Shown here one piece after another: positions 5,372 to 28,769 of a DNA stretch of 28,769 nucleotides. The position numbers and the translations under genes were made by a program. This DNA is from a virus (lineage: Duplodnaviria > Heunggongvirae > Uroviricota > Caudoviricetes): the IMG/VR virus record IMGVR_UViG_2529292720_000011; one strand, written 5' to 3'. Position 1 is the stretch's first letter. The number at the start of each line of letters is the position of its first letter. Below the pieces are notes generated by a model. The model was not told the origin of the DNA. It searched no databases and was given only the letters and a program-made list of their open reading frames with translations.

Positions 5372-5443
5372 TTCCTGTTCCGGGCCTTTCCTGCACCTTG
5401 CGGCGGGAGGCCTTCGCACATCTGTAACAAGAGGATTGCCGCA

Positions 5444-5809
5444 ATGATTCTCGCCAACGACTTTCTTGAATACCTGCTCAACACAGAACGTGATCTTGCC
5501 GTTCGCGTGCGTGAACGTTATGACATGTACCTGAAATCCCTGCCTGTACCGCAGCTCGCTGACGGAAAGATTGTTATTGATGGTCGCTACATGATTGACA
5601 GCCACGAGGGAAATTACAGGCTTTACCGCATTGAAGGTGGCACCCCGTCCGTTATTGGCATTTACCAGCGCCCATCCTCTGCAATCGTCGATGTGATTGC
5701 CGACAGCATCCGCATCACACATCGCCATGCCGACACAGAAGACACCGTGCTGGAAATTCAGCGGCTGGCTACAGTCTGCCGCGACACCCTGAATGGCATA
5801 ACGAAGTAA
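5444..5809 (+). CDS. Hypothetical protein preceding the replication gene (121 aa)
   Basis: ORF immediately upstream of gpA, same strand. Confidence 0.45.
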   Translation: MILANDFLEYLLNTERDLAVRVRERYDMYLKSLPVPQLADGKIVIDGRYMIDSHEGNYRLYRIEGGTPSVIGIYQRPSSAIVDVIADSIRITHRHADTEDTVLEIQRLATVCRDTLNGITK

Positions 5810-5815
5810 ATCACT

Positions 5816-8623: not shown

Positions 8624-8699
8624 AGCGCGCACAAAACAGGCGAAAGCGGGATTTAAAAATCCCGTAAACGGTTAATTAACCAACATAAGGAAAATCGAC

Positions 8700-9659
8700 A
8701 TGAAAATTTGTATCGACGACGGCTCCACCAACATCAAGCTGGCATGGACTGAGAACGGCGAACGCCGCAACGCCATCAGCCCGAACAGCTTCAAGTCGGA
8801 ATGGTCTGCGCCGTTCGGTGGCACGCATCCCGCGAACTACATGCTTGATGGCGTGCGCTATGGCTTTGATCCGGTCAGCGATCGTTTTGTCCAGACGACT
8901 GACACGCAATACCAGTACAGCGATGTGAATGTAATCGCCATTCATCACGCGCTGGTCAAATCAGGCATCACGCCACAGGAGGTGGATGTGGTTGTCACCC
9001 TGCCACTGAGCGAGTATTTCGACACAAACGCACAGCCGGACATGGCCAACATCAACCGCAAAAAAGCGAACGTCATGCGCCCGGTGGAGTACCAGAACGG
9101 CGAAGCATTCACTATCCGTAACGTACGGGTTATGCCTGAATCCATTCCGGCTGGCTTTAAGGCACTGGCTGACATGAGTCCGTTTGAATCCCTGCTGATT
9201 GTGGATTTGGGCGGAACCACGCTGGATGTGGCAAAGGTTCAGGGGCAGCTGGCAGGTATCAGCCAGGTGTTTTGCGATCCAAACGTAGGCGTTTCCCTGA
9301 TGGCTGATGCCGTGCTGTCGGTGATGGCCACTAACGGTATGCGTACCAGTCACCACATCGCCAATACCATTATTGAGCACCGTCACGATGAAGCCTGGCT
9401 GCGCCAGCACATTCACAATGACGCGCATTACAACAGCCTGATGGCGGTTATTCGTGAAAAGGAGGAGACACTGAAACAACGAGTGATCCGCGCGCTGGCG
9501 GGTTTTTCCGGTTACGGGCGGGTGATGGTTGTCGGTGGAGGGGCGGAGATTGTGGCACCCGCTATCCGCGAAGCCTGCGGAGTTAATGCGACTTTCATCG
9601 CGGACGGGGTGCCACAGTTTGCTCTGGTTAATGGGCTGTACGCAATGAACAAGGAGTAA
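8700..9659 (+). CDS. parM: Actin-like segregation ATPase, ParM/StbA family
   Basis: N-terminus MKICIDDGSTNIKLAW...ISPNSFKSEW matches the R1 ParM N-terminus as recalled (MLVFIDDGSTNIKLQW...ISPNSFKREW); phosphate-2 LIVDLGGTTLDVA and adenosine VMVVGGGAEIV motifs present; 319 aa. Confidence 0.85.
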   Translation: MKICIDDGSTNIKLAWTENGERRNAISPNSFKSEWSAPFGGTHPANYMLDGVRYGFDPVSDRFVQTTDTQYQYSDVNVIAIHHALVKSGITPQEVDVVVTLPLSEYFDTNAQPDMANINRKKANVMRPVEYQNGEAFTIRNVRVMPESIPAGFKALADMSPFESLLIVDLGGTTLDVAKVQGQLAGISQVFCDPNVGVSLMADAVLSVMATNGMRTSHHIANTIIEHRHDEAWLRQHIHNDAHYNSLMAVIREKEETLKQRVIRALAGFSGYGRVMVVGGGAEIVAPAIREACGVNATFIADGVPQFALVNGLYAMNKE

Positions 9660-10339: not shown

Positions 10340-10609
10340 GTGCGGGCTAAAACAGGTATTTGCAAGAACCCTCATCGTTATAACCCAACATTTCTGTCTC
10401 TCCCTGAATATCAAGGACAAGAAGGTCGGCACAAATGCGCTGCCTGTGCTTTTGAGCTAGGCATAAAAGATGCGCTTGAAGGACGCGCTATGGCTCAGAA
10501 TGATTTAGTTTTAGCTAACATTCCGTTTAGCCAGGCTGGAACTGTAAGGCACAGAGATGCTTATGAAGCATATGTTAGTGGTTGGCGATTAATACACAGC
10601 AACAATTGA
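10340..10609 (+). CDS. Hypothetical small Cys/His-containing protein (89 aa)
   Basis: GTG start with GAGG 8 nt upstream; C-x(3)-H ... H-K-C-A-A-C pattern may form a small zinc-binding knuckle; followed by a strong terminator. Confidence 0.5.
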   Translation: MRAKTGICKNPHRYNPTFLSLPEYQGQEGRHKCAACAFELGIKDALEGRAMAQNDLVLANIPFSQAGTVRHRDAYEAYVSGWRLIHSNN

Positions 10610-10616
10610 TATTTTT

Positions 10617-10642
10617 GAAGCGCCGATAAGGCGCTTTTTTTG
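10617..10642 (+). terminator. Rho-independent terminator
   Basis: gaagcgcc-gata-aggcgc stem-loop followed by TTTTTTT. Confidence 0.65.
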
Positions 10643-10643
10643 T

Positions 10644-10673
10644 TTGCACGATAGTGCACAAGTTTGCACAATT
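10644..10673. repeat. Three direct repeats of TTTGCAC/AGTGCAC with 10-bp periodicity (iteron-like)
   Basis: tttgcacgat / agtgcacaag / tttgcacaat read directly; a fourth GTGCAC at 10736-10741. Confidence 0.5.
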
Positions 10674-11169
10674 TTTTTGAACGACTTTTTGTACTTCCGG
10701 CCCGCGTGGCGGCTGGATCCGTCAAGGATCCGTACGTGCACAAAAAACGCGTTTTTTCTACGCGCAGGTGACGGGGGAACAGCCCGCGTTTCAGGGGGTA
10801 AATAGCATTCCCTGAACGATGTCGCAGAGACACAACAGAATGGCCATATTTCTCACGCTGAGCATGAAAAAGGCGTGAGGGCTTTTGATTTGATGGGGGG
10901 AAAGGTAAGGCCGTCAAAATCGCACTGAGGCAGCGAGAACATACAGTCAACGTGGTGGGATTGCGTAAGAGTCTGACCGTCGATGGTGGCGATAAACTGG
11001 AAGGCGTCGTGAAATTATCTGATTGATACAGGAGCTGGAGAGTCGGGGCATAAATTTTTTATGCCCCGGCGAAGCAGCAGACAAGCGAAGCGCGTCAGCG
11101 ATACGGCACCTTGCCGACCATACTTCGTAAGTGCAAAATACGAGCAAAGAAATCAATGGAGGCTGTCTT

Positions 11170-11694
11170 ATGGTCATTAATTACAAGCAGTTAAGAGAAA
11201 AACGGGAGCAGGTAAAGGAGAGCTTTCGCCGCAATGAAGATCTGACCCCGCTTGTACGCCTTGCCCAGGGCATTGTTGATGCTTATGAAATCTCGCTGGA
11301 GCTGCCATCACAGACCTGGACAGATAGCGACGGTAATCGCCAGCATTACGTTTCATGCGGACTGGAAGCAGCCGAAGGATTTCGCAGAATGCCTTTATCT
11401 CAGATCCCTGCCGCTACCCCCAAAGCAAGGGGCGGCAATGATGAGCGAAAACTGATTTTCAGCATTGAGACAGTGGTTGACGACACACCTGGCGAAGTCG
11501 CCTTCGTGCATACTCCTCTTTCGATCGCAATGTATAACGATGAAATACAGGTTCGCGTTAATAATAATATCGTGCCACTTAAAGAAGGTAATTCACCCTA
11601 CACCACCGTTTGTGAAGCCATTCAATATTACGTTTTCTCTGAAATTGATAATCTCAAGCCTGACGGCACCCAGAAAATGGTTCAGCTCTGGTAA
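11170..11694 (+). CDS. Hypothetical cargo protein (174 aa from ATG 11170)
   Basis: GGAGG 7 nt upstream of ATG 11170 (ORF track starts at 11131); convergent with portal gene; no motif recognised. Confidence 0.5.
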   Translation: MVINYKQLREKREQVKESFRRNEDLTPLVRLAQGIVDAYEISLELPSQTWTDSDGNRQHYVSCGLEAAEGFRRMPLSQIPAATPKARGGNDERKLIFSIETVVDDTPGEVAFVHTPLSIAMYNDEIQVRVNNNIVPLKEGNSPYTTVCEAIQYYVFSEIDNLKPDGTQKMVQLW

Positions 11695-11726
11695 AAAGGA
11701 CAGCCCCATCACGGGGCTGTTTTTTC
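11693..11726. terminator. Bidirectional intrinsic terminator between convergent genes
   Basis: AAAAA-ggacagcccc-atca-cggggctgt-TTTTTT; overlaps the last codons of the portal gene. Confidence 0.6.
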
Positions 11727-12755
11727 ATCAAGAAGAGCATAAGAGTTAAAACGGATCACCTCTTCGCCAAGCCAGTCATTGATGTGCTTCATGGCCTCCA
11801 TAACGGGCATCAGCTCGTTAATTGCGTAAACCCGCGCGGCCTTCTCCACATCACCAAACGCACTTTTTTCGCCCGGCATCGCCCCCATCAGTTGCGGCGG
11901 AACACGGTGCGCAGCCAGCACATCATCACGGGATGCCGCCTTAACATTCATGAACTCATCTTTTGCGGTGATCTGCTGGAACGGCAAAATTTGCACCCCC
12001 TCTTTGCCCCCGTTGGGCGCATGAATGAGCACGTTTTTAAACGCACCACCACCACGTGCCCCCTGTAGCGTTTCTTTCAGGGAGTCCATGCTTTCGCGGT
12101 TTACCTGCGCTGCACCGATGTAGATGATGCACCCGGCGTGGGATCCGTTGTCGTAGTACAGTTTTCTGAACATGTCCGCCGAATGAGAAAGGCTGGCCGA
12201 GAGTAATGCGCCAAGATATTCCGGCATGCCGTAGATTTCCTGGTTAATATCCGGATTCATCAGGTGGCACACTTTGCCAGGACGAAACTGAAACGCGTCC
12301 TTGCCATCCTGCACATACCACCATGATTCAAGATCGCTTCCGCGTCGCATGTATTTCGCCAGGGCGTGCCGTAATTTAAGCGGTTCGCCGAGCATATTGC
12401 TCCGAAGCTCAAGGAATGCGTTACCGAACACAAACCAGTCCAGCGCCAGCGCCGAGAAATCCTGCCGGGAAAGCAGCGGGTGCGGAATATAGCAGCCGAG
12501 CAATACATTGCGCTTAAAGTAAAGCGCAGACTGATGCCAGGACGTTTGCCGGGCAGCTCTTGCCAGACCGTACCAGTCCACCGGGGTTTCATACCACCGC
12601 CCGTTATCAGCACAGTACATATTGTCCAGCAGGTCATGCCCGGTCAGGCGATAAGGACCATCAAATGTGAATGCACTGAGCGATGATTCTTTCCTGAGCG
12701 CATCAGCGAGATCAATGCGTGAACTCATGCGCACTTTTTTATTTTTTCTGCTCAT
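11709..12755 (-). CDS. Q: Portal protein gpQ (P2 Q-like)
   Basis: 348 aa (P2 Q about 344 aa as recalled); adjacent to and co-oriented with the terminase large subunit. Confidence 0.8.
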   Translation of the reverse strand: MSRKNKKVRMSSRIDLADALRKESSLSAFTFDGPYRLTGHDLLDNMYCADNGRWYETPVDWYGLARAARQTSWHQSALYFKRNVLLGCYIPHPLLSRQDFSALALDWFVFGNAFLELRSNMLGEPLKLRHALAKYMRRGSDLESWWYVQDGKDAFQFRPGKVCHLMNPDINQEIYGMPEYLGALLSASLSHSADMFRKLYYDNGSHAGCIIYIGAAQVNRESMDSLKETLQGARGGGAFKNVLIHAPNGGKEGVQILPFQQITAKDEFMNVKAASRDDVLAAHRVPPQLMGAMPGEKSAFGDVEKAARVYAINELMPVMEAMKHINDWLGEEVIRFNSYALLDEKTAP

Positions 12756-16617: not shown

Positions 16618-17418
16618 ATGATTACTCCTGCACAGCAACACTGGCAGAACGTGATGGCACAGCGCGCAGGCCGGGCGAATGAAGGCGTGGACCATGCCGC
16701 GCGTACCGCGCATGAAGAGGTGCTGTATCGTCTGCGTCTGGCACAGGCCCGGCTTAAGGGCGTACAGGCCAGAAGCGCGAAAGCCGCCATCAAAAAAGAG
16801 TTATTGCCGGACTTTTCCGGCTGGATTGAGGGAACGCTGGAGGCTGACGGCGGGCAGCAGGATGAAGTGATTGCCACGCTGATGGTGTGGGCGATTGACT
16901 GCGGCGATCTTCCGCTGGCGCTGCGTATTGGTGCATATGTGGTCCGTCACAACCTCATCATGCCGGATAACTTTGGACGTACTGCTGCCACGGTACTGAC
17001 CGAAGAAATCTGTAATCCGGTACTGACGCAGGCCGGGACGGATGCCGACGCGGATTTGTCCGCCTTTATCGAACCACTGGACACCCTCCGGGAGATTGTC
17101 ACCGACCAGGACATGCCGGACGAAGTGCGCGCCAAATTATGCAAAGCGTGCGCCTTTGCCCGCCGTGGCCTGACCGATGCGGACAGCATGGCCTCATCAC
17201 TGAAGCTGCTGCGCGAAGCGATGCACCTGAACCCGAACGCAGGTGTGAAACGCGAGATTGCAACCCTTTCCCGCGCCCTGAAAAAAGCCGATTCCGCAGC
17301 CGCACCAGAAGATGCCAGCACACCGCAGGCGCAGGACGAAAGCAGCAAAAGTAAAAAGACAACGCGGAAGCCTGCAACACGAAAAACCACCGCGACGCAG
17401 AAGGCGAAGCGCGGTTAA
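16618..17418 (+). CDS. M: Terminase small (endonuclease) subunit gpM
   Basis: MITPAQQHW...KKELLPDF...DMPDEVRAKL...AGVKREI parallels P2 gpM; basic C-terminal tail. Confidence 0.8.
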   Translation: MITPAQQHWQNVMAQRAGRANEGVDHAARTAHEEVLYRLRLAQARLKGVQARSAKAAIKKELLPDFSGWIEGTLEADGGQQDEVIATLMVWAIDCGDLPLALRIGAYVVRHNLIMPDNFGRTAATVLTEEICNPVLTQAGTDADADLSAFIEPLDTLREIVTDQDMPDEVRAKLCKACAFARRGLTDADSMASSLKLLREAMHLNPNAGVKREIATLSRALKKADSAAAPEDASTPQAQDESSKSKKTTRKPATRKTTATQKAKRG

Positions 17419-17521
17419 CGACTGACCCCGTCAGCGGGCGGCGTGCGCGGTGTTCCGGTTTGACTCCGTGACCGTTTACACCGCGCACCCACCGCCCGAT
17501 TTTTTTCAGGAGTGAACCCCC

Positions 17522-18016
17522 ATGAGTATGGTTGCCAGAACTGAACCAAGACCCGCAGAGGACGACATCACCGATACCGATGATGGTGATACCCGTATTT
17601 CAGCGGGTGCATTCTGGCCGGATATTGTGCTGCGTGAGCTGCGTCTGGCGATACGACTGCCGGGCCGTGTGACCACCTCCCGCCTGCTGCATACCGCCAC
17701 CGGGGCAGTGGCACACGTTACCCGCGAGCTGGAAGCGTGGCAGCAGGAACAGCAGGCGGCTGGCCATCAGACGCTGGCCGATGTTCCGGCACCCGTAATT
17801 AACGGAGAAAGCGTCAATCTCTGGCACTGGCGCAATGCGGTTTACACCGCCACACGCGCCCTGATTCTGGAGCGTTACCGCGATGCGGACACAACGGACA
17901 AGGGCGACCGCCGGGCGGACGCACTGGATATACAGACATCGGATTTGTGGCGCGATGTGAGCTGGGCCATCTCTGACATTCTGTGCCGCCCGCGAATCTT
18001 TGCGGAGTTGTGCTGA
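17522..18016 (+). CDS. L: Head completion/stabilization protein gpL
   Basis: 164 aa, at the gpL position after gpM (P2 L about 169 aa). Confidence 0.7.
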   Translation: MSMVARTEPRPAEDDITDTDDGDTRISAGAFWPDIVLRELRLAIRLPGRVTTSRLLHTATGAVAHVTRELEAWQQEQQAAGHQTLADVPAPVINGESVNLWHWRNAVYTATRALILERYRDADTTDKGDRRADALDIQTSDLWRDVSWAISDILCRPRIFAELC

Positions 18017-18216
18017 TGAAAGTGAAGGCACTGGAAGGCGACACCGTGGATTCGCTCTGTTTTCGGTACTACGGCACGACGCAGGGCGTCACCGAAAAGG
18101 TGCTGGATGCCAACCCCGGACTCTGTCAGCAGGTATTTCTGGACGCCGGGCAGGAAGTGGAGATGCCGGAGCCGGAGAAGAAGAAACGAGAAATGATTCA
18201 GTTGTGGGGGGAGTAG
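18016..18216 (+). CDS. X: Tail protein gpX (66 aa)
   Basis: ATG overlaps the L stop (TGATG); size and position match P2 X. Confidence 0.6.
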   Translation: MKVKALEGDTVDSLCFRYYGTTQGVTEKVLDANPGLCQQVFLDAGQEVEMPEPEKKKREMIQLWGE

Positions 18217-18218
18217 CA

Positions 18219-18542
18219 GTGAGCACCATTCAAACAGGGATCACAGAGCAGGTTATTGCGTGGCTCTTTGACCACCTGCCAACGGTGTATGCAGTAGGCG
18301 CGGCGGTCAGCATTTCCGCGCTGATGAGTCTTTATGACGGACGAACACTGGTTCAGACCGTAACGGGATCGCTGGCGTGCGGCGTTCTTGCCATGGCCGT
18401 GGCCGGGTCGTTGCGCTTCTTCGGGTTTCCTGAAGATGCCGTGACGTTTATCGGCGCATCAATCGGTTTTATGGGTGCAGAGAAAGCACGCGACAAGGTT
18501 ATTGCGGCCTTTAATCGCAGGGTGAAGGAGAAAGACGAATGA
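18219..18542 (+). CDS. Holin (gpY-like), two predicted TM helices
   Basis: GTG start; hydrophobic segments VIAWLFDHLPTVYAVGAAVSISALM and LACGVLAMAVAGSLRFFGF with a charged C-terminus; directly upstream of the endolysin. Confidence 0.6.
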   Translation: MSTIQTGITEQVIAWLFDHLPTVYAVGAAVSISALMSLYDGRTLVQTVTGSLACGVLAMAVAGSLRFFGFPEDAVTFIGASIGFMGAEKARDKVIAAFNRRVKEKDE

Positions 18543-18931
18543 GCAACACATTTAAATTCAGCAGCCGGAGCGAAAAGAATTTGCAGGGCGTAAATCCTGA
18601 TCTGGTGAAAGTGACCCGACGAGCACTGGAAATCTCGGAAGTGGATTTTGGTATCACCGAAGGGTTGCGCAGCCGTTACCGCCAGAAGCAACTTGTGGCC
18701 ACAGGTAAGAGCCAGACCAGGAACAGCCGCCACCTTACGGGGCATGCCGTGGATGTTGTGGCTTATATCGGCAGCCAGGTGTCATGGGAATGGCCGCTGT
18801 ACGAAAAAATCGCAGCAGCATTCAGACAGGCCAGCCGGGAACTGAATATTCCGGTGGAATGGGGCGGCGACTGGAAGACCCTGAAAGACGGACCGCATTT
18901 TCAGTTACCACACGGAGCCTATCCGGCATGA
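18539..18931 (+). CDS. Endolysin, L-alanyl-D-glutamate peptidase (M15/LAS zinc peptidase fold)
   Basis: Zinc-binding motif SRHLTGHAVDV (H-x6-D) and C-terminal GGDW...DGPHFQL His; 130 aa; lysis cassette context. Confidence 0.75.
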   Translation: MSNTFKFSSRSEKNLQGVNPDLVKVTRRALEISEVDFGITEGLRSRYRQKQLVATGKSQTRNSRHLTGHAVDVVAYIGSQVSWEWPLYEKIAAAFRQASRELNIPVEWGGDWKTLKDGPHFQLPHGAYPA

Positions 18932-19335
18932 AGCTCTGGCCCACGCTGGGCGTCGCTTTCCTTCTGATTGCCGCATGGGGAACATCCATGCGTCTGTCGT
19001 GGTCGCTGGGCCGGGAGAACGCCAGAAACGAAGCGCAGGCCAGCACCCTGAAAAGTACCGTCGACACCCTGAATATCATCAGCGCCGGGGTACAGGATAT
19101 GCAGCAGGTGCTGGCACAACTCCGCGTGGAAAATCAGCAACGCAATCAGGACGGAGAAGCCAGACGTGAACAGCTACGCAACGATATTGCAAAAGATGAA
19201 TGCGCCCCCGCTTTGCCTGATGCTCGTTTTACTGACAGGTTGCGCAGGCACGCTGAACGCGCCACGGCCAGCGCCGTCAGTCCGGCTTATACCGCAGACG
19301 CTGACCATACCGGTAACGCCTCCCCCCGTCCCTGA
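18928..19335 (+). CDS. i-spanin (Rz/LysB-like)
   Basis: N-terminal TM MKLWPTLGVAFLLIAAWG then coiled-coil-like Q/R-rich periplasmic domain; ATG overlaps endolysin stop. Confidence 0.6.
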   Translation: MKLWPTLGVAFLLIAAWGTSMRLSWSLGRENARNEAQASTLKSTVDTLNIISAGVQDMQQVLAQLRVENQQRNQDGEARREQLRNDIAKDECAPALPDARFTDRLRRHAERATASAVSPAYTADADHTGNASPRP

Positions 19336-19486
19336 CACTCCCACATGGGGAAATCTCGGTATATGGGGCGACCGCCTTCTGGATGCACTGGAAACCTGTA
19401 ACGCGGATAAACGGGCCATTGAATTACTGGAACAGCGCAGGCTGCAACGACTGAACAACGAGGACAACAACCATGCTGAAAACTGA
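19196..19486 (+). CDS. o-spanin (Rz1/LysC-like outer-membrane lipoprotein)
   Basis: Signal peptide plus lipobox MNAPPLCLMLVLLTGCAG; Pro-rich mature part; starts inside the i-spanin gene in another frame and extends beyond it. Confidence 0.65.
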   Translation: MNAPPLCLMLVLLTGCAGTLNAPRPAPSVRLIPQTLTIPVTPPPVPDTPTWGNLGIWGDRLLDALETCNADKRAIELLEQRRLQRLNNEDNNHAEN

Positions 19487-19940
19487 TTCCCTGCGTGAAG
19501 CCATGACCCGTTCATGCCGATGGTGTCAGGCCAACCCGGAAAAATTCACCATTTTCGTGGAGAGCGGCAACATTGAAACGACCGGAGAAACGCCCTCGTT
19601 TGTTTAACGCTATCAGATGGTGATGTTTGTCATGGATTACGCCGGGGAGCTGGACGACCTCACGCTGCCGCTACTGGCGTGGTTATCCGAAAATCAGCCA
19701 CAGTTGTTGCTCAATCCGGAGCGTAATCAGGACATCAAATTTTCCGCCGTTATCAATGACGATGACAGCGCCGATCTCCTGTTTACGCTCCCCCTGCGGG
19801 AACGCGTTCGCATTACGCGCAACAGTCAGGGGACACCGCAGGCAGAACACCTGCCGGAGCCAAAACCCCGTCTGCCCTCTTCCGAAGGCGACTGGTCGCA
19901 TGTATTCCAGGATGTGACGTGGGGTGAAAGCAATGGATAA
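19473..19940 (+). pseudogene. R: Tail completion protein gpR interrupted by an in-frame TAA at codon 45 (19605-19607)
   Basis: Fragments 19473-19604 (MLKTDSLR...) and 19617-19940 share one frame; together they span 155 codons, the size of P2 gpR, and the stop aligns with a Lys in the recalled P2 R sequence (...SFEKRY... vs ...SFV*RY...). Confidence 0.55.
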
Positions 19941-20592
19941 GGCATTCACCCGTGTGGATGAAACCTTTGAGGCCATCCGTGACAGCCTGAATCAGCAGGT
20001 CATCAATAACATCGCCAGAAAGCTGGCACAGGATTTACGCCGCGCCCAGCAGGCACGTATCCGGTCACAGAAAGCGCCGGACGGGACCGCGTGGACACCT
20101 CGCAGACGCCGCGTAACCCGGATACAGGAGCGCATTCGCTTTATCTGGAATAACGAAGCACGCACGCTGAAAAACTGGCATCACGACACGGGGAAATACG
20201 GGCGAACCATTACCGGGTGGGATGAGGATAAAAACAATATCCGCACGTTTTACCGGGATGACATCGACCGTTTTCTGGAAATACGCACCCGGCGCATCAA
20301 CCAGGACAGCACAAAGCGCGTCCCCATGTTCGTAAAACTGCGCACCGCCCGCTACCTGAAAGCCCGTGCAGATGCTTCCGGTGTGACGGTGGGTTACAGC
20401 GGCGTGGCCGCACGTATTGCCCGCGTTCATCAGTTCGGTGAGCGCGATCAGGTTGCGCCGGGCATTTTCACCGATTACCCGGTACGTGAGCTGCTGGGTA
20501 TCAGCCAGGCAGATGAGCGCCTGATTTATAACACGGTGCTGGGCCGGATTGCGGAGGCTGTACGGGGAGCGCAGAACTCATGCGACTGCTGA
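19933..20592 (+). CDS. S: Virion morphogenesis / tail completion protein gpS-like
   Basis: Position between R and V; about 220 aa (GTG 19924 or ATG 19933 start). Confidence 0.55.
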   Translation: MDKAFTRVDETFEAIRDSLNQQVINNIARKLAQDLRRAQQARIRSQKAPDGTAWTPRRRRVTRIQERIRFIWNNEARTLKNWHHDTGKYGRTITGWDEDKNNIRTFYRDDIDRFLEIRTRRINQDSTKRVPMFVKLRTARYLKARADASGVTVGYSGVAARIARVHQFGERDQVAPGIFTDYPVRELLGISQADERLIYNTVLGRIAEAVRGAQNSCDC

Positions 20593-21146
20593 GCAATATC
20601 ATCCGCACCGGGATCATCTCTGAAGTTGATGAGAAGTCCTGGCGCGTGCGCGTTCGCAGCGGCGAACTGGAAACAGGCTGGTTGCGCTGGAACACCACGC
20701 GCGCGGGAGCCTTCAATGTGTGGCTGCCGCCATCACCAGGCGAACAGGTGGTAATTGCCTGCATTGGCGGCAACCCGGAAACCGCCATGATAATTGGCAG
20801 CCTGTGGAGTGATACCAGTCCGGCACCCGGCAAAAGCCTGAAAGAAATCGTGATCAGCGCGCCGGACGGCGCGGTGTTCCGCTACGACGCGGACGCAGGC
20901 GCACTGAGCGCCAGCGGCATGAAAACGGCCACCCTGCAGGCATCCGTCAGCGTGAAACTGGATACGCCCGTCGTGGAATGCACAAACCTTCTGAGAACGG
21001 CGACGCTTGACGTCACAAAAGGAGGAAAGATGAGCGGCAATATCACGCACAGCGGCGGCAACTTCACCTCAAACGGCATTACCGTGCATACGCATAAACA
21101 CGGTGGCGTGAAAGGCGGCGGCGATTCGACAGGAGGCCCGCAGTGA
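20580..21146 (+). CDS. V: Baseplate spike/assembly protein gpV
   Basis: 188 aa; Gly-rich C-terminus HTHKHGGVKGGGDSTGG typical of V-type spikes; position. Confidence 0.75.
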   Translation: MRLLSNIIRTGIISEVDEKSWRVRVRSGELETGWLRWNTTRAGAFNVWLPPSPGEQVVIACIGGNPETAMIIGSLWSDTSPAPGKSLKEIVISAPDGAVFRYDADAGALSASGMKTATLQASVSVKLDTPVVECTNLLRTATLDVTKGGKMSGNITHSGGNFTSNGITVHTHKHGGVKGGGDSTGGPQ

Positions 21147-21493
21147 CAACCCGCTACACAGGAATGAACCCGGACGGAACGGGAAACCTGAATGATATGG
21201 AGCACCTGAAACAGTCAGTCAGGGACATCCTGACCACCCCGCTGGCAAGCCGGGTTATGCGACGGGAATATGGCAGCCTTGTGCCTGATTTGATTGACGA
21301 ACCCATGAATAACACCACGCGTCTGCAATGCATGAGTGCTGCCGTGATTGCGCTGACACGATGGGAACCCCGCATTGCCCTGGATGCCATCGACGTTGTC
21401 TGGAAAGCGGGAGGCCGCGCCGGGGTGACACTGTCGGGCACTGTCATGCAGACCATGCAGAATGTTGAGTTAACCATCACGCTGAGGGAGTAA
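21143..21493 (+). CDS. W: Baseplate protein gpW
   Basis: 116 aa; GTG start with AGGAGG RBS overlapping the V stop; size and position match P2 W. Confidence 0.75.
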   Translation: MTTRYTGMNPDGTGNLNDMEHLKQSVRDILTTPLASRVMRREYGSLVPDLIDEPMNNTTRLQCMSAAVIALTRWEPRIALDAIDVVWKAGGRAGVTLSGTVMQTMQNVELTITLRE

Positions 21494-21496
21494 ATC

Positions 21497-22393
21497 ATGC
21501 CCGCCGTTGACCTTTCCCAGTTACCGGAACCCGCCATCATCGCGGAGCCTGACTTTGAAGCAATTCTGGCTGACACAAAAGCCATGATGATTGCGTCCTA
21601 TCCCGCCGAACAGCGTGAAGCCGTTTCCGCCGCACTGGAGCTGGAATCGGAACCCCTTAACGTTATCGCTCAAACCATGTCGTTTCGTGAAATGCTGTTA
21701 CGCCAGCGGGTCAATGAGGGTGCACGCGCCTGCATGTTAAGCCACAGCGCCGGGACAAACCTGGACAACCTCGCAGGCAATATGAACACAAAGCGCCTGG
21801 TTATCACTCCGGCAACGGATACCACCGACGCGGTGATGGAGAGCGACACCTCGCTGAGACTGCGGGCGCAACGGGCGTATGACGGCCTGAGCGTTGCTGG
21901 CCCGTCAGGCGCATACGAGTATTTTGCCCGCAGCGCCAGCGGTCTGGTGCGTGATGCGCGGGCTATCAGTCCGTCTCCGGCAAATGTGACGGTTTCCATC
22001 CTGTCCACTGAAGGCGACGGCACGGCAACGGAGGCGTTGCTTAATACCGTTCGCGCCGTTCTGAATGCAGAGGATACCCGCCCGGTGGCCGACCGCCTGA
22101 CCGTACAGAGCGCCAGAATCGTGACATGGCGGCTGAATGCAAAACTGTACTTTTACCCCGGCCCGGAATCCGAACCTATTCTGGCCGCGGCGGAATCGTC
22201 ATTCAGGAAGTGGCTGGCTGAACAGGGGCTTATCGGTCAGGACGTGGCGTTGTCAGCCATTGCTGCCGCACTGCATGTGCACGGTGTGCAACGCGTGGAG
22301 ATAATCGAACCCACACAAAATATGGCCATCAGCGACATACAGGCGGCGCGCTGTGAGTCATTCACCATCAGCGAAGGTGGGCGTAATGAGTAA
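21497..22393 (+). CDS. J: Baseplate protein gpJ
   Basis: 298 aa, position and size match P2 J (about 302 aa). Confidence 0.8.
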   Translation: MPAVDLSQLPEPAIIAEPDFEAILADTKAMMIASYPAEQREAVSAALELESEPLNVIAQTMSFREMLLRQRVNEGARACMLSHSAGTNLDNLAGNMNTKRLVITPATDTTDAVMESDTSLRLRAQRAYDGLSVAGPSGAYEYFARSASGLVRDARAISPSPANVTVSILSTEGDGTATEALLNTVRAVLNAEDTRPVADRLTVQSARIVTWRLNAKLYFYPGPESEPILAAAESSFRKWLAEQGLIGQDVALSAIAAALHVHGVQRVEIIEPTQNMAISDIQAARCESFTISEGGRNE

Positions 22394-22916
22394 TTCACTG
22401 TTACCGCCATCAGCCAGCAATTTCATGCGTTGTGCCGAAGCTGTCGGAACACGCATTACAGACATCCCGGTAGACCTCAACACGCTGTGGTCGCCGGACA
22501 CCTGCCCGGTGCATCTGCTGCCTTATCTCGCCTGGGCATTTTCCGTTGACCGCTGGGATCGCAACTGGCCGGAAGAGACAAAGCGACAGGTGATTCGTGA
22601 TGCATGGCTGATACACCGACACAAGGGAACCATCAGCGCACTGCGCCGGGCCATTGAGCCGCTGGGATATCTCATTCGTGTGTCTGAGTGGTGGGAGTTC
22701 GGCGGGGAACCGGGAACATTTACCGTTGAAGTCGGCACGCTGGACAGTGGCGTGACGGAGGAAATGTATCTGGAAATGGAGCGGTTGATTGCTGATGCCC
22801 GCCCGGTCAGCCGCCACATGACAGGGCTGAATATCATTCAGGAGATCCCGGGAGATATTTTCGCGGCGGCAGCAACTTACGACGGTGAAGTCATTACCAT
22901 TTATCCGGACGATTAA
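22386..22916 (+). CDS. I: Baseplate protein gpI
   Basis: ATG 22386 overlaps the J stop; 176 aa from that start matches P2 gpI size. Confidence 0.75.
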   Translation: MSNSLLPPSASNFMRCAEAVGTRITDIPVDLNTLWSPDTCPVHLLPYLAWAFSVDRWDRNWPEETKRQVIRDAWLIHRHKGTISALRRAIEPLGYLIRVSEWWEFGGEPGTFTVEVGTLDSGVTEEMYLEMERLIADARPVSRHMTGLNIIQEIPGDIFAAAATYDGEVITIYPDD

Positions 22917-22918
22917 GC

Positions 22919-25201
22919 ATGAGTACCACAACACGTAAATTTAAAACCGTTATCACCAATACGGGTGCCAAAAAATTAGCTCAGGCAGCCGCGCCAGATG
23001 GTAAGCCTGTCCGCCTGACTCATATGGCCGTGGGTGACGGCGGCGGCACTTTACCCTCGCCAGACAGTAAGCAGACCCGTCTGGTGCATGAGGTGTGGCG
23101 ACACACTGTTAATCGCGTCTTCCTGGACGCAACACATCAGAACCGCATTATTGCGGAGCTGGTTGTTCCTCCAGAAACGGGCGGATTCTGGATCCGGGAA
23201 ATTGGTGTGTTTGATGAGCACGGCGATTTAATCGCAGTAGGCAATACTGCCGAAAGTTACAAGCCAACCGTTGCCGAAGGGTCAGGACGTGCACAAACAT
23301 TTCGCACCATTCTGACCGTATCCAGCACTGCCACTATGGCGCTTACCGTGGATAACACCATGGTAATGGCCACAGTGGATTACGTGGATGACAAACTGAA
23401 AGAGCATGAACAGTCACGACGTCACCCGGACGCCTCGCTGACCGCAAAAGGCTTTGTTCAACTTAGCAGCGCCACTAACAGCACATCTGAAACGCTGGCT
23501 GCGACACCTAAGGCTGTTAAGGCAGCATATGACCTGGCTAATGGCAAATACACCGCACAGGACGCAACCACTGCGCGGAAAGGGATAGTTCAGCTCAGTA
23601 GCGCCACCAACAGCACGTCTGAAACGCTTGCGGCAACGCCAAAGTCTGTTAAGGCGGCATATGACCTGGCTAATGGCAAATACACCGCACAGGACGCTAC
23701 CACTGCGCGAAAAGGGATAGTTCAGCTCAGTAGCGCCACTAACAGCACATCTGAAACGCTGGCTGCAACGCCGAAAGCAGTAAAGGCCGCATATGACCTT
23801 GCTAACGCAAAATATACCGCTCAGGACGCAACGACGGCACGAAAAGGGATAGTTCAGCTCAGTAGCGCCACTAACAGCACATCTGAAACGCTGGCTGCGA
23901 CGCCAAAAGCTGTTAAGGCGGTAATGGATGAAACGAACAAGAAAGCGCCCTTAAATAGTCCTGCACTGACCGGAACGCCAACAACGCCAACTGCGCCGAA
24001 AGGGACTAATAATACTCAGATCGCAAGCACGGCTTATGTGATGGCCGCGATTGCCGCACTTGTAGACTCGTCGCCTGACGCACTGAATACGTTGAACGAG
24101 TTAGCGGCGGCGCTGGGAAACGACCCGAATTTTGCGACCACCATGACTAAAGCGCTTGCGGGTAAGCAACCGAAAGATGCCACCCTGACGGCGCTGGCCG
24201 GGCTTGCTACTGCGGCAGACAAGTTTCCGTATTTTACGGGGAATGATGTCGCCAGCCTGGCAACCCTGACAAAAGTCGGGCGGGATATTCTTGCGAAATC
24301 GACCGTTGCCGCTGTTATCGAATACCTCGGTTTACAGGAAACGGTAAACAGGGCCAGGAACGCCGTGCAAAAGAATGGCGATACCTTGTCCGGTGGGCTT
24401 ACTTTTGAAAACGACTCAATCCTTGCCTGGATTCGAAATACTGACTGGGCGAAGATTGGATTTAAAAATGATGCCGACAGCGATACTGATTCATTCATGT
24501 GGTTTGAAACAGGCGACAACGGCAATGAATATTTCAAATGGAGAAGCAAACAAAGCACCACAACAAAAGACCTGATGACGCTGAAATGGGATGCACTAAA
24601 TATTCTTGTTAATGCCGTCATTAATGGCAGCCTTGGAGTTGGTACGACGAATGCGTTAGGTGGTAGCTCTATTGTTCTTGGTGATAATGATACCGGATTT
24701 AAACAGAATGGAGACGGTATTCTGGATGTTTACGCTAATAGTCAGCGAGTATTCCGCTTTCAGAATGGAGTGGCTATTGCTTTTAAAAACATTCAGGCAG
24801 GTGATAGTAAAAAATTCTCGCTATCCAGCTCCAACAACTCTACGAAGAACGTAAGGTTTAATTTATGGGGCACTTCATCAAGACCAACTGTTGCAGAGCT
24901 TGGTGATGATTCAGGCTGGCATTTCTATAGTCAGCGAAATACAGATAACTCGGTAATATTTTCTGTTAACGGTCAGATACAGCCCAGCAACTGGGGGAAT
25001 TTTGATTCACGCTATGTAAAAGATGTTCGCCTGGGTACGCGAGTTGTTCAATTGATGGCGCGTGGTGGTCGTTATGAAAAAGCAGGACACGCAATTACCG
25101 GATTAAGAATCATTGGTGAAGTAGATGGCGATGATGAAGCCATCTTCAGACCAATACAAAAATACATCAATGGCACATGGTATAACGTAGCACAGGTGTA
25201 A
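22919..25201 (+). CDS. H: Tail fibre protein gpH (constant N-terminal part fused to the currently expressed variable C-terminal part)
   Basis: 760 aa; N-terminus MSTTTRKFKTVITNTGAKKLAQAAAP..., internal 44-aa repeats, C-terminus ...AIFRPIQKYINGTWYNVAQV; near-collinear with P2 gpH as recalled. Confidence 0.9.
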   Translation: MSTTTRKFKTVITNTGAKKLAQAAAPDGKPVRLTHMAVGDGGGTLPSPDSKQTRLVHEVWRHTVNRVFLDATHQNRIIAELVVPPETGGFWIREIGVFDEHGDLIAVGNTAESYKPTVAEGSGRAQTFRTILTVSSTATMALTVDNTMVMATVDYVDDKLKEHEQSRRHPDASLTAKGFVQLSSATNSTSETLAATPKAVKAAYDLANGKYTAQDATTARKGIVQLSSATNSTSETLAATPKSVKAAYDLANGKYTAQDATTARKGIVQLSSATNSTSETLAATPKAVKAAYDLANAKYTAQDATTARKGIVQLSSATNSTSETLAATPKAVKAVMDETNKKAPLNSPALTGTPTTPTAPKGTNNTQIASTAYVMAAIAALVDSSPDALNTLNELAAALGNDPNFATTMTKALAGKQPKDATLTALAGLATAADKFPYFTGNDVASLATLTKVGRDILAKSTVAAVIEYLGLQETVNRARNAVQKNGDTLSGGLTFENDSILAWIRNTDWAKIGFKNDADSDTDSFMWFETGDNGNEYFKWRSKQSTTTKDLMTLKWDALNILVNAVINGSLGVGTTNALGGSSIVLGDNDTGFKQNGDGILDVYANSQRVFRFQNGVAIAFKNIQAGDSKKFSLSSSNNSTKNVRFNLWGTSSRPTVAELGDDSGWHFYSQRNTDNSVIFSVNGQIQPSNWGNFDSRYVKDVRLGTRVVQLMARGGRYEKAGHAITGLRIIGEVDGDDEAIFRPIQKYINGTWYNVAQV
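23449..23976 (+). repeat. Four tandem 132-bp (44-aa) repeats inside gpH
   Basis: KG(F/I)VQLSSATNSTSETLAATPK(A/S)VKAAYDLANGKYTAQDATTAR repeated at 23449, 23581, 23713 and 23845 (period exactly 132 nt); fourth copy diverges after AVKA. Confidence 0.85.
24315..24340. repeat. Left crossover site (gix/cix-like) for the DNA invertase, inside gene H
   Basis: ttatcgaatacctcggtttacaggaa matches the reverse complement of 27242-27267 at 24 of 26 positions. Confidence 0.65.
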
Positions 25202-25204
25202 ATT

Positions 25205-25732
25205 ATGCAGCATTTAAAAAATATTAAGTCAGGAAATCCAAAAACAAAAGAGCAATATCAGCTAACAAAGAATTTTGATGTTATCTGGTTATATACAGAA
25301 GACGGTAAAAACTGGTATGAGGAAGTAAATAGCTTTCAGGAAGACACCATAAAGATTGTTTACGACGAAAATAATATTATTGTTGCCATAACCAAAGATG
25401 CCTCAACGCTTAATCCCGAAGGCTTTAGTGTCGTTGAGATTCCAGATATAACAGTCAATCGTCGTGCCGATGATTCAGGGAAGTGGATGTTTAAGGACGG
25501 AACTGTGGTTAAGCGGATTTATACAGCAGACGAACAGCAACAACAGGCCGAATCACAAAAGGCCGCATTGCTTTCCGAAGCTGAATCAGTCATCCAGCCA
25601 CTGGAACGCGCTGCCAGGCTGAATATGGCAACAGACGAGGAGCGCACACGACTGGAGTCATGGGAACGCTACAGTGTTCTGGTCAGCCGTGTGGATACGG
25701 CAAATCCTGAATGGCCACAAAAGCCTGAATAA
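25205..25732 (+). CDS. G: Tail fibre assembly chaperone gpG (U-like)
   Basis: 175 aa; [24 protein letters not shown]...; N-terminus nearly identical to the minus-strand paralogue at 25761-26294. Confidence 0.85.
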
Positions 25733-25737
25733 AAATT

Positions 25738-25757
25738 AAGGCCCGCTATCGGGCCTT
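25738..25757. terminator. Hairpin/terminator between the convergent tail fibre assembly genes
   Basis: aaggcccg-ctat-cgggcctt flanked by A-run on one side (T-run for the minus strand). Confidence 0.5.
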
Positions 25758-25760
25758 GTC

Positions 25761-26294
25761 TCATTCAGGTTGTTCGGGAAACGTTACTGGCAGGCTGGAA
25801 GTGTCTGTAGATTCGACTTTCTGCGCAAAGAGTATCCACTCTGTTAATTTTTGTTTACTCTCGTCGGAAATGATGCCCAGCCGTAGCTGTGAGTCCCATA
25901 ACTGGGTTTTATCCCTGACAAGTTGCAACAGGCTTTGCTTTTCATTCTCTGCCTGCTGCCTCTGCTCTTCCCCGGTATAAGTTCGCTTTATCACTACGCC
26001 ATCTTTGAACATCCATTTACCCGAAATATCAGCCCGGCGATTTGCTGTAATATCAGGTAATTCAACGACGCTTGCGCCTTCTGGATTAATTACTGAAACA
26101 TCCTTTTCAATACAAATAATAACGCCGTTACGGTCATAGACCATTTTCAACGTATCAGGCTGAAAGTTCTTTTGTTCCTCATACCAGTTTTTTCCATCAT
26201 CTGAATAAAGCCATTTGATGTTAAATTGTTTCGTTAGCTGGTATTGCTCTTTTGTTTTAGGGTTGCCAGCAGTAATGTTTTTTAAGTGCATCAT
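25761..26294 (-). CDS. Alternative tail fibre assembly chaperone (U'-like)
   Basis: 177 aa; [24 protein letters not shown]... conserved N-terminus, divergent C-terminus relative to gpG. Confidence 0.8.
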   Translation of the reverse strand: MMHLKNITAGNPKTKEQYQLTKQFNIKWLYSDDGKNWYEEQKNFQPDTLKMVYDRNGVIICIEKDVSVINPEGASVVELPDITANRRADISGKWMFKDGVVIKRTYTGEEQRQQAENEKQSLLQLVRDKTQLWDSQLRLGIISDESKQKLTEWILFAQKVESTDTSSLPVTFPEQPE

Positions 26295-26296
26295 AA

Positions 26297-27241
26297 TTAA
26301 ATACTCCCCGCGTTATACCACCTTCCATTAATGCAATACTGAATTGGCCTTGCCTGAGTTGTATCAATTAATTCATCACGGTTTCCGTTAACTGAACCCG
26401 TAACGACATAACCTGACCTGTCAGACCAGCCGGGACCATTCCATGTCTGAACAGATGACAGACCGCCCAGGCGAATACCTGTAATAAACCTTGAGTTACA
26501 TTCTGCCTGCGTATATGCACCAACATCCCCCGCAGAGGGTTTGCGGGTTGTGGTGTAAAACTCTGACCAGTTAGCTTCAAAGCCATAACCATCACGCGCT
26601 GAACGATAAAAGATACCGCCGTTTTTATAATTCACGCGGAACTGTACAGCAGGGCAACTCCCCGCATTCATATTAAAGTGGAGGATTAATGTCGATGCGC
26701 CACTGATATCTGCATCATAAACGCCGCTATTCCAGTTCCAGCCAACAGCTTTATCATTTGCAACCCTGCTTCCTGTTTGCCCTAAAGCAAATGCAGGCTG
26801 CTGGTTTTTCGTGTTGTAGTCTCGTCGCCAGCCAGGAGCATAAGCATCACCATGATTAATATAGGTGAATTGAGCGTTAGTAATTCCGCCACCGCTGGAT
26901 GTACTCGGCGTAGTAACGCGTATGGTCATTGCGCCGCGAGTGCCAATAACTTCCACCACAGCACCTGCAAGACAAATATTTCCGCAACCTGTATCTGTAA
27001 TGACCTTATTGTTTGCATAAGCCCATGAGCCTTTGCACATCCAGTAAGGATGGTTAAATGCCCCCTGACTCTCCAGCCACGAAATGAATTGTGCGGTTGT
27101 CCAGGTCTGACTATCGCCACCAATATTCAGCCATGCGCTATATGCGCGGCAGGCACCAATATTTTTGGTGAAGGTATCTTTTCCTGGAATATCTGCGCCG
27201 TTCTGTTTTTTCTGTAATGCACCAGAAGCCTGATTTACCGT
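26297..27241 (-). CDS. Alternative tail fibre C-terminal segment (Sv'-like), no start codon, silent in this orientation
   Basis: Minus-strand frame is open from the right crossover site to 26297 (ETVNQASGALQKKQ...ARPIQYCINGRWYNAGSI), with a stop inside the crossover site on its outer side; the ORF track only shows the part after the first Met (26297-27040). Confidence 0.7.
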   Translation of the reverse strand, partial: TVNQASGALQKKQNGADIPGKDTFTKNIGACRAYSAWLNIGGDSQTWTTAQFISWLESQGAFNHPYWMCKGSWAYANNKVITDTGCGNICLAGAVVEVIGTRGAMTIRVTTPSTSSGGGITNAQFTYINHGDAYAPGWRRDYNTKNQQPAFALGQTGSRVANDKAVGWNWNSGVYDADISGASTLILHFNMNAGSCPAVQFRVNYKNGGIFYRSARDGYGFEANWSEFYTTTRKPSAGDVGAYTQAECNSRFITGIRLGGLSSVQTWNGPGWSDRSGYVVTGSVNGNRDELIDTTQARPIQYCINGRWYNAGSI

Positions 27242-27267
27242 TTCCTGTAAACCGAGGTTTTAGATAA
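27242..27267. repeat. Right crossover site (gix/cix-like)
   Basis: ttcctgtaaaccgaggttttagataa, inverted relative to 24315-24340 and about 55 bp upstream of the invertase start. Confidence 0.65.
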
Positions 27268-27321
27268 TGGCCGTTTCTGGCCTGCATGGCATGATTTGCG
27301 CTTTTGGACGGGAGATTCAGT

Positions 27322-27909
27322 GTGCTGATTGGCTATGTAAGGGTATCAACAAATGACCAGAATACAGACCTGCAACGAAACGCTCTTGTTTGTGCAGGAT
27401 GTGAACAGATATTTGAAGATAAATTAAGCGGGACAAAGACAGACCGACCGGGATTAAAACGCGCTTTAAAGCGCCTTCAAAAAGGTGACACGCTGGTTGT
27501 CTGGAAACTGGATCGCCTCGGGCGAAGCATGAAACATCTGATTTCTCTCGTCGGGGAACTACGGGAGCGAGGGATTAATTTTCGCAGTCTGACCGACAGC
27601 ATAGATACATCTTCTCCAATGGGGCGTTTTTTCTTCCACGTGATGGGGGCCCTGGCTGAAATGGAACGTGAATTAATTGTTGAACGTACACTGGCCGGAC
27701 TGGCGGCAGCGCGCGCACGGGGGCGCACAGGCGGACGTCGACCGAAGCTGACAAAAGAACAGCATGAGCAAATAGCAAGGCTGATTAAAAACGGTCACGA
27801 CAGAAAACAACTGGCAATAATTTACGGCATTGGTATATCGACGATTTATCGTTACCACCCCGCAGGAGAACCAAGCGGAACAATTGAGAAGAGTCAGGAA
27901 ACAAAATAA
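27322..27909 (+). CDS. Serine DNA invertase (Gin/Cin/Pin/Hin family)
   Basis: From GTG 27322: VLIGYVRVSTNDQNTDLQRNAL...VVWKLDRLGRSMKHLISLVGELRERGINFRSLTDSIDTSSPMGRFFFHVMGALAEMEREL... with catalytic Ser in YVRVSTNDQ and C-terminal HTH; near-identical pattern to Mu Gin as recalled. Confidence 0.9.
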   Translation: MLIGYVRVSTNDQNTDLQRNALVCAGCEQIFEDKLSGTKTDRPGLKRALKRLQKGDTLVVWKLDRLGRSMKHLISLVGELRERGINFRSLTDSIDTSSPMGRFFFHVMGALAEMERELIVERTLAGLAAARARGRTGGRRPKLTKEQHEQIARLIKNGHDRKQLAIIYGIGISTIYRYHPAGEPSGTIEKSQETK

Positions 27910-27938
27910 CCGCTAATCTGACCATTAGCGGTTTTTGT
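27909..27938. terminator. Bidirectional terminator between invertase and gpU-like gene
   Basis: accgctaat-ctgacc-attagcggt stem followed by TTTTT; A-rich on the other side. Confidence 0.55.
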
Positions 27939-27944
27939 GTTAAA

Positions 27945-28439
27945 TCAGAACATCCCTTTAACTGAACTGGCCGCGCTGTTAAGAGATGATGTCACCTTAT
28001 CTTTGAAGCCGGACAGCATATCGCTGAATGATGAGGATTGCAGGCGCTCCCGCAAATCCTCATCACAGCGTTCAAGTGTCAGTGAAAATTCTATCTTTTT
28101 CGCCTTACCGTAGCGATCAAACTCGGAACGGGTCGTATTCGTTCCGGTCAGGACATACATGCCGTAAATCTGCCCGACACCATCAATCAGAGGCCAGGGG
28201 CGTCCTGTATATGCCTGCGTGGTCAGCAGCGAAAGCGACACTTCGCCACCTGTAATTTCAGGATAAAGCACGCCAGAAAGCACGATGCGATCATCACCTG
28301 CACCGATATACTGCCAGCTTGCTGAGCGGTTTACGCGCTCATTTTTCACATGCCGCCAGCTTTTGTTTTGCTGTAACTGCTGATGCGGCAATGTGCGCAG
28401 CTCAAAAACAAACATGCCGTAGATCATCATCATGGCCAT
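27945..28439 (-). CDS. U: Phage tail protein gpU-like (164 aa), opposite orientation to the rest of the late genes
   Basis: MAMMMIYGMFVFELRTLPHQQLQ...IVLSGVLYPEITGGEVSL... matches the recalled P2 gpU N-terminal pattern. Confidence 0.55.
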   Translation of the reverse strand: MAMMMIYGMFVFELRTLPHQQLQQNKSWRHVKNERVNRSASWQYIGAGDDRIVLSGVLYPEITGGEVSLSLLTTQAYTGRPWPLIDGVGQIYGMYVLTGTNTTRSEFDRYGKAKKIEFSLTLERCDEDLRERLQSSSFSDMLSGFKDKVTSSLNSAASSVKGMF

Positions 28440-28479
28440 GACTCCTCAATCTTTATCGTAAAAACTGCCACGTCCGGCA

Positions 28480-28769
<290 letters not shown>

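Follow-up and report, generated by a model that had tools for sequence, protein, structure and literature searches.

An apparently complete Gin-type inversion switch in the tail-fibre operon of a P88-like Escherichia coli prophage

Introduction

The tail-fibre gene H in a 28,769-nt stretch of viral DNA (IMG/VR virus record IMGVR_UViG_2529292720_000011, Caudoviricetes; the whole stretch is hereafter called the window) is followed by a second set of fibre and chaperone sequences on the opposite strand and by a DNA invertase gene, which raises the question of whether this phage exchanges the tip of its tail fibre by DNA inversion. The initial annotation had read the region between positions 24315 and 27267 as an intact invertible host-range switch of a P2-like phage. 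The analysis described here indicates that the locus is very probably a Gin/gix-type, Fis/enhancer-dependent inversion switch, homologous to the G segment of phage Mu and placed in a P88-like tail-fibre operon. The switch is real but ordinary, being already described in the literature and annotated in close relatives.

The window begins at the integrase stop codon, and positions 1–23919 are 95–97% identical to Escherichia phages 520873 and P88 over 82–94% of the length. Matches to the Pfam families Phage_GPA and Phage_P2_GpU were found along with a P2-family capsid annotation. Judged by its similarity, synteny and P2-type genes, the element is a P88-like prophage belonging to the genus Xuanwuvirus of the Peduoviridae; the P2-like context assumed earlier is that of a P88-like Xuanwuvirus backbone.

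Crossover sites flanking the fibre segment

A repeat finder applied to positions 22000–28769 ranked first an inverted repeat with arms of 34 nt at 24315–24348 and 27234–27267, the arms being 94% complementary. The left, gixL-like site (24315–24348, + strand) lies inside H and has its 26-bp core at 24315–24340 (TTATCGAATACCTCGGTTTACAGGAA), with the central dinucleotide at 24327–24328. The right, gixR-like site (27234–27267, − strand) has its core at 27242–27267 (reverse complement, TTATCTAAAACCTCGGTTTACAGGAA), with the central dinucleotide at 27254–27255. The two cores differ at two positions, both within the outer half-site, and share an identical central dinucleotide, TC/GA, while the two repeats have 25 contiguous identical bases in common. 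Comparison with the sites of Mu showed that the left core matches gixL at 24 of 26 positions (two mismatches) and the right core matches gixR at 25 of 26 (one mismatch). The sequence of the left site is the same in P88 and in the enterotoxigenic E. coli (ETEC) genomes H10407 and ETEC-2264. A pair of inverted 26-bp sites sharing their central dinucleotide, as is characteristic of the Gin/Hin/Cin/Pin systems, is hence present. The 26-bp crossover sites of the initial annotation were found where it had placed them, although the repeat is slightly longer than was claimed.

In a pattern search of the whole window with up to three mismatches allowed, the two cores were the sole matches, and no match was obtained over 100 shuffled sequences. 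At this stringency the window contained no third crossover site of the kind that makes a shufflon, as in the Min system of p15B or in one P2-like locus of enteropathogenic E. coli (EPEC).

Fibre variants and chaperones carried by the segment

The H gene (22919–25201, + strand) encodes a tail fibre of 760 residues with a Phage_tail_fib domain and four Phage_fiber_2 repeats (Pfam). Both the N-terminal Phage_tail_fib domain and the four repeats belong to the constant part, Hc (22919–24326, + strand), which extends to the crossover point. Residues 1–580 of H are 76% identical to P2 gpH and 86% identical to P88 H. A 132-nt tandem repeat at 23456–23921 (3.5 copies, 88% matches) encodes the Phage_fiber_2 repeats of Hc, and its copy number differs among relatives, the H gene of ETEC-2264 being longer by exactly 132 nt (44 residues).

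The variable C-terminus expressed in the present orientation, Sv (24329–25201, + strand), is a mosaic of the type found on the G(+) side of Mu and in P2 H. Residues 467–758 of H are 48% identical to Mu S, the whole of H is 76% identical to P2 H, and Sv matches the Mu tail fibre S structure (PDB 5yvq). The DNA at 24617–24995, within Sv, is matched by ETEC prophages and not by P88, Mu or P1. Next to Sv on the same strand is a chaperone gene of the P2 G/Mu U type (25205–25732; Pfam Caudo_TAP, E = 2.4e-35), the product of which is 94% identical to Mu U and 91% identical to P2 G.

A second chaperone gene, of the Mu U′ type (25761–26294, − strand; Caudo_TAP, E = 1.1e-33), is silent in the present orientation, and its product is 94% identical to Mu U′. 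Where the two chaperone genes converge, they are separated by a G+C-rich hairpin (25738–25757) with a terminator-like score and a T-run on the − strand only. The alternative fibre C-terminus, Sv′ (26297–27259, − strand, stop codon at 26297–26299), is startless and of the Mu G(−) type: it is identical to Mu S′ at 305 of 318 residues (96%) and matches PDB 8ju3, in which Mu S′ was solved as a fusion to S, with E = 6.5e-214. The ORFs (open reading frames) and Pfam matches thus bear out the content proposed for the segment, i.e., Sv with its chaperone on one strand and, on the other, a chaperone with a startless alternative C-terminus. In public records, the silent Sv′ is listed from an internal ATG (26297–27040, − strand) as a gene in its own right, named "tail fiber protein" or "hypothetical protein," for example AIZ95150 in P88 and ETEC_RS10885 in H10407. 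Such minus-strand entries represent the startless alternative C-terminus of H and no separate gene.

The Sv′ frame is closed upstream by a TAA codon at 27260–27262, which lies within the outer half of the right site and would therefore be left outside the segment upon inversion. Simulated inversion (reverse complement of 24327–27255) gave an uninterrupted H′ reading of 788 residues (...AAVIEYLGLQETVNQASGALQKK...) and recovered the predicted junction (...EYLGLQETVNQASGALQKK...), so that the fusion of the constant part of H to the alternative domain, as envisaged in the initial annotation, is in frame. Since the invertible segment excludes the H promoter and start codon along with the first 469 codons, one orientation would give Hc-Sv (760 residues) and the other Hc-Sv′ (788 residues). 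A constant 5′ part outside the segment and two opposed 3′ parts, each with its own chaperone, constitute the arrangement of the Mu G and P1 C switches.

Invertase and predicted recombinational enhancer

The gene following the segment (27322–27909, + strand) encodes a serine DNA invertase of 195 residues with an N-terminal Resolvase domain (Pfam, E = 1.5e-50) and a C-terminal helix-turn-helix domain (HTH_7, E = 1.8e-13). The best solved relatives of the protein are the Gin structures PDB 4m6f and 3uj3 (E about 1e-100). The active-site residues Y5, R7, S9, D64, R65, and R68 are present and invariant with respect to Gin, Cin, and the P88 enzyme, and the domain pair together with S9 and the arginines identifies a member of the Gin/Hin/Cin/Pin group, in agreement with the family originally proposed. 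The role of S9 in Gin and the phenotypes of the S9A and M114V substitutions, the latter of which makes Gin Fis-independent, have been described (PMC3575834). Residue M114 of the window invertase is wild type.

The two domains are unequally similar to Gin. Residues 1–119, the catalytic domain, are identical to Mu Gin at 118 of 119 positions, and residues 138–195, the DNA-binding domain, at 26 of 56 (46%). Judging from this difference, the invertase is a chimera of a Gin catalytic domain and a foreign DNA-binding domain, with the junction near 27701. The same DNA-binding domain is common to P88-type phages and to one P1-like phage record, where it is annotated "Hin2."

The invertase most likely starts at GTG 27322, which is preceded by a GGGAGA ribosome-binding site 5 nt upstream. 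A TTG codon at 27304 was also considered as the start and was rejected, as GTG 27322 fits the start of Mu gin and the P88 and RefSeq annotations.

A recombinational enhancer (sis) is predicted in the 5′ end of the gene (27340–27411, + strand), where the sequence differs from that of Mu gin by one base. A motif scan located two matches to the Fis consensus, at 27344–27358 and 27392–27406, with centers 48 bp apart and at the same positions in Mu and P1. The spacing of the Fis sites in the Hin, Gin and Cin enhancers is 48 bp. Over the first 100 nt (+1 to +100) of the invertase gene a single base differs from Mu gin, and this stretch overlaps the annotated enhancer of P1 Cin (+19 to +90 of cin). 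The enhancer in the invertase 5′ end is predicted to be Fis dependent. A hairpin at 27908–27933, with a terminator score on both strands, lies between the invertase gene and the convergent gpU gene.

Orientation of the segment in related genomes

The arrangement in the ETEC H10407 prophage is that expected of an inverted segment. Its matches to the window run from 18119 to 24352 (98.0% identity), continue in reverse from 27267 to 24315 (98.8%) and end with 27229 to 28482 (99.9%). The outer half-sites stay with Hc and with the invertase gene, the inner flanks are exchanged, and the breakpoints fall exactly at the repeats, as expected for crossover inside the sites. At least seven complete E. 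coli genomes contain, without a mismatch over 400 nt (100% identity), the inverted left junction obtained by simulation.

Both orientations are common among relatives. A 2.35-kb query specific to the P88-like context, covering segment, invertase and gpU, detected the present orientation in 62 complete E. coli genomes and the inverted orientation in 60. The invertase-side junction alone gave 129 genomes for the present and 228 for the inverted orientation. Counts at the left junction (358 genomes present, 106 inverted) were set aside, as this stretch also occurs in P2-type phages devoid of an invertase and in lambdoid prophages. Prophages that are 98–100% identical outside the segment differ in its orientation. 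Inversion between two orientations, with breakpoints at the sites, as the initial annotation had proposed, is thus displayed by near-identical prophages. The initial annotation had named, as evidence that would refute the switch, a dead invertase together with a segment seen in one orientation only; to the extent that sequences can show, neither applies, as Ser9 is intact and both orientations occur. A 501-nt query for the junction between the invertase and a P2-type gpU was covered to at least 80% in 621 of the 5,426 complete E. coli genomes, or about a tenth. In the genome of strain DS26-1 (NZ_CP035879.1), two copies of the P88-like module lie ∼38 kb apart across the record origin (about 5062046–5066399 and 16881–21233), one in the present orientation (99.9% identity) and one inverted (98.6%).

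An insertion near the end of the window bears on how recently the segment has moved. Matches to H10407, P88, and 520873 all end at 28482, and the remaining 28483–28769 match ETEC-2264, by whose annotation they belong to an IS100-family (IS21-like) insertion sequence (IS) whose transposase gene istA starts at 28569; the window ends inside this element. By comparison with H10407, IS100 interrupts the tape-measure gene 37 nt before its 3′ end, and it parts this gene from gpU, which lies downstream in the same minus-strand operon. The insertion is common to ETEC-2264, LR882978, and 90-9280 and is absent from H10407, P88, and 520873. The IS100 junction of the window recurs in ETEC-2264 and LR882978 together with the present orientation, and in 90-9280 together with the inverted one. 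The occurrence of both orientations among strains with one IS100 junction suggests that flipping continued after the insertion.

These observations are in agreement with published work. Inversion in the P2-like prophages of EPEC E2348/69 has been demonstrated experimentally within clonal cultures (Goldberg et al., 2014; PMC4272514), and Mu-like tail-fibre inversions in E. coli prophages, with confirmation by long reads, appear in systematic surveys (PMC9881135). As assemblies of the P88-like prophage family show an arbitrary orientation of the segment, the switch should be considered in fibre comparisons and in host-range work.

Proposed mechanism

As the Gin/Hin paradigm would have it, dimers of the invertase would bind the two 26-bp sites, and synapsis of the sites would take place at the enhancer within the 5′ end of the invertase gene, with Fis bound to it. 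Cleavage by Ser9 at the central 2 bp, TC/GA, followed by 180° subunit rotation and religation would then flip about 2.93 kb. One orientation would provide Hc-Sv with its own chaperone and the other Hc-Sv′ with the chaperone U′. As in Mu, the two fibre tips may bind different lipopolysaccharide cores, which would result in a lysate with two host ranges. The C-terminal region of the fibre sets the host range in P88 (PMC5285337), and by analogy with this work and with Mu, the two orientations are expected to differ in adsorption specificity. The P88 host-range paper (PMC5285337) makes no mention of an invertase or of inversion.

The sites, both variants with their chaperones, the invertase and the predicted enhancer are all present, and the switch, which the initial annotation had called intact, appears to be complete and still active. 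In the window copy itself, it probably still flips.

Several points weigh against this reading and temper it. The orientation evidence comes from comparison with other genomes. A simple scan between the right site and the GTG found no sigma-70-like promoter for the invertase; where a gene is weakly expressed, as Mu gin is, such a null result is uninformative. The DNA-binding domain is just 46% identical to that of Gin and the outer half-sites differ from those of Mu, and recognition of the sites is therefore deduced from the co-occurrence of domain and sites in flipped relatives rather than from Mu biochemistry. The present Sv variant is a mosaic whose receptor specificity is putative. Lastly, the consequence for host range may not be realized in this copy, given an internal stop codon at 19605–19607 and the IS100 at 28483.

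The internal stop codon is an in-frame TAA (codon 45) in the gpR-like tail-completion gene (19473–19940), where H10407 has a Tyr codon. RefSeq flags the gpR-like gene of ETEC-2264, a strain with 99.8% identity to the window, as a pseudogene with an internal stop. With this nonsense codon and the IS100 insertion, the prophage copy that carries the switch looks defective and may yield no infectious particles. Such a switch can outlive its phage.

Alternative explanations

The presence of an intact switch in a decaying prophage raises the alternative that the module has been domesticated, being kept for inversion in trans of orphan segments elsewhere in the genome or for a fibre fusion that benefits the host, for instance by keeping other phages from adsorbing. 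The gpR-like nonsense codon and IS100 are accompanied by a switch of which every part is intact. In ETEC-2264, moreover, a lambdoid prophage next to potB (NZ_CP023349, 1294139–1306538) contains a copy of the segment 99.2% identical to window positions 23710–27512, with identical crossover sites and a truncated recombinase, a remnant of 64 residues; this copy could be flipped in trans by the invertase of the P88-like prophage of the same genome. A published precedent is provided by the cryptic prophage Qin, whose PinQ inverts the P segment of e14; the resulting StfE2 fusion blocks adsorption of T2 (PMC12529663). However, the damage is possibly recent, as IS100 and the stop codon are found in a few near-identical strains, whereas the intact H10407 prophage and P88 share the switch; there is no sign here of expression in the lysogen or of a host phenotype, and the second segment is not in the window. 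The domestication of the module is hence considered unlikely, and the more specific proposal that the switch now serves the bacterium, by flipping orphan segments in other prophages and/or by a phase-variable surface or anti-phage fusion, is slightly less likely still. This explanation leaves the basic mechanism standing because it concerns why the module is kept.

It may also be argued that the switch is a fossil, intact by sequence, which no longer inverts in this lineage, for instance through loss of invertase expression or a poor fit of the divergent DNA-binding domain to the sites, the orientation differences being old. The negative outcome of the simple promoter scan upstream of the invertase, the outer half-sites, which differ from each other at two positions and also from those of Mu, and the limited identity of the DNA-binding domain to that of Gin (46%) would all fit such a state. 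They are countered by the nearly 1:1 split of orientations in close relatives (62 vs. 60), by prophages 98–100% identical outside the segment that differ in orientation, and by the finding of both states among the few strains with the derived IS100 insertion. The same sites and the same variant of the DNA-binding domain co-occur in all of these prophages, and the gin gene of Mu is weakly expressed too. A frozen switch is, on balance, very improbable.

RecA-dependent homologous recombination between the 34-bp repeats, in place of the invertase, can practically be dismissed as the source of the inversions: although 25 contiguous identical bases are near the minimum for RecA recombination, a complete and conserved set of invertase, enhancer and sites stands beside the segment in every flipped relative, the near-equal split implies flipping more frequent than 25-bp homology would give, and the homologous Mu, P1 and e14 systems use the invertase for inversion.

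A Gin-type inversion switch therefore remains the preferred reading of the locus. The switch is a textbook one, in a prophage family common in E. coli, and its significance beyond correct annotation is small. Only mildly unusual are the chimeric invertase, the complete switch in a damaged prophage and the second segment copy in the lambdoid prophage of ETEC-2264.

Other features of the window

Two stretches, 11102–11734 and 4524–5329, are absent from phage 520873. The former, immediately upstream of the portal gene, contains an ORF of 187 codons (11131–11694), which may be an accessory or moron gene and had no NCBIfam or PADLOC match. Scans with PADLOC and NCBIfam of this ORF and of those at 1384–2034, 1008–1313, 5001–5447, and 10340–10609 gave no defence-system matches. 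No + strand ORF of at least 60 codons was seen within 10610–11130, and this interval may contain cos. Between the integrase gene and a repressor-like helix-turn-helix gene lie two cargo genes (1008–1313 and 1384–2034, − strand), one of which is a DUF2511 ORF that carries a frameshift flag in ETEC-2264; the other encodes a membrane protein of 216 residues that weakly resembles Flk (NCBIfam, 58 bits; cutoff, 353 bits).

Comparison with known inversion systems

Close counterparts are found within Xuanwuvirus. P88 and 520873 are annotated with a tail fibre, an assembly protein, an assembly protein (− strand), a "tail fiber protein" (− strand), a DNA invertase and a gpU-type gene, and the named members of the group (P88, 520873, P884B11, Citrobacter Shae_phiSM, and the ETEC H10407 prophage) have the same order from H to gpU. 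In the P88-like phages, the backbone is 95–97% identical at the DNA level, the crossover sites are identical and the invertase is 98% identical. The window differs from P88 in the middle of Sv, where 24617–24995 is unmatched, and the segment is flipped in H10407 and 520873. Unlike P88, H10407, and 520873, the window copy has IS100 and the nonsense codon. Outside the genus, a tblastn search with the DNA-binding domain of the invertase found annotated invertases in other P2-like phages, among them pro483 and a "phage P2" isolate from O157:H43, and in Salmonella and Klebsiella phages. The switch is the standard layout of P88/Xuanwuvirus and of many other Peduoviridae and is no peculiarity of the window phage. 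The P2-like loci of EPEC E2348/69 (PMC4272514) similarly have an invertase and inverted repeats inside the tail-fibre gene, with the orientations coexisting clonally; one of these loci has three repeats and four variants in a shufflon-like arrangement, whereas the window has two sites and two states.

The H and G genes of phage P2, with identities of 76% and 91%, occupy the corresponding place in the operon; P2 is devoid of a second fibre and chaperone set, a second site and an invertase, G being followed by a terminator and fun(Z). This agrees with the initial annotation, according to which P2 itself lacks an invertase. P2 H (AF063097, 2405–2430) does have a solitary gix-like sequence, TTATCGAATATCTCGGTTTACAGGAA, at the place homologous to the left site and with one mismatch to it. 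The G+C content in the window changes from 55–60% in the baseplate genes and Hc to 38–47% inside the segment. The proposal that the module is a mosaic acquisition stands insofar as the module is common horizontally to Mu, P1/P7, and lambdoid prophages; either gain here or loss of half of the module in P2 may account for its distribution, given the solitary gix-like site kept by P2 H.

The C segment of P1/P7, with Cin, and the P segment of e14, with Pin, belong to the same switch family, the invertases of which are known to replace one another. The P1/P7 segment is 90–95% identical to the window in DNA sequence over much of its length and likewise has its enhancer inside the invertase gene. The cix sites of P1 differ at 6 of 26 positions, Cin is 72% identical to the window invertase, and, unlike in the window, cin lies on the other side of the segment and in the other orientation.

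The G segment of Mu and D108 is a close homologue of the window segment and has the same architecture (Sc, gix, Sv-U, U′-Sv′, gix, invertase). The Mu/D108 G region is 92–94% identical in DNA sequence from 24308 (7 nt to the left of the left site) to 27701, in the middle of the invertase gene, with the exception of 24617–25165, which is divergent. With identities of 92–95% to the Mu G and P1 C segments, the homology of segment, sites and invertase confirms the Mu/P1 type assigned at the outset. The likeness to Mu extends to S′ (96%), U and U′ (94%), the catalytic domain of Gin (118/119) and the GTG start of both invertase genes. The system differs from that of Mu in its host, a P2-like myovirus and not a transposable phage; in its constant part, a P2-type H, which has a tail-collar domain and fibre repeats, in place of the Mu Sc; in the replaced middle of the G(+)-side variable part; and in the outer half-sites, which differ at one or two positions.

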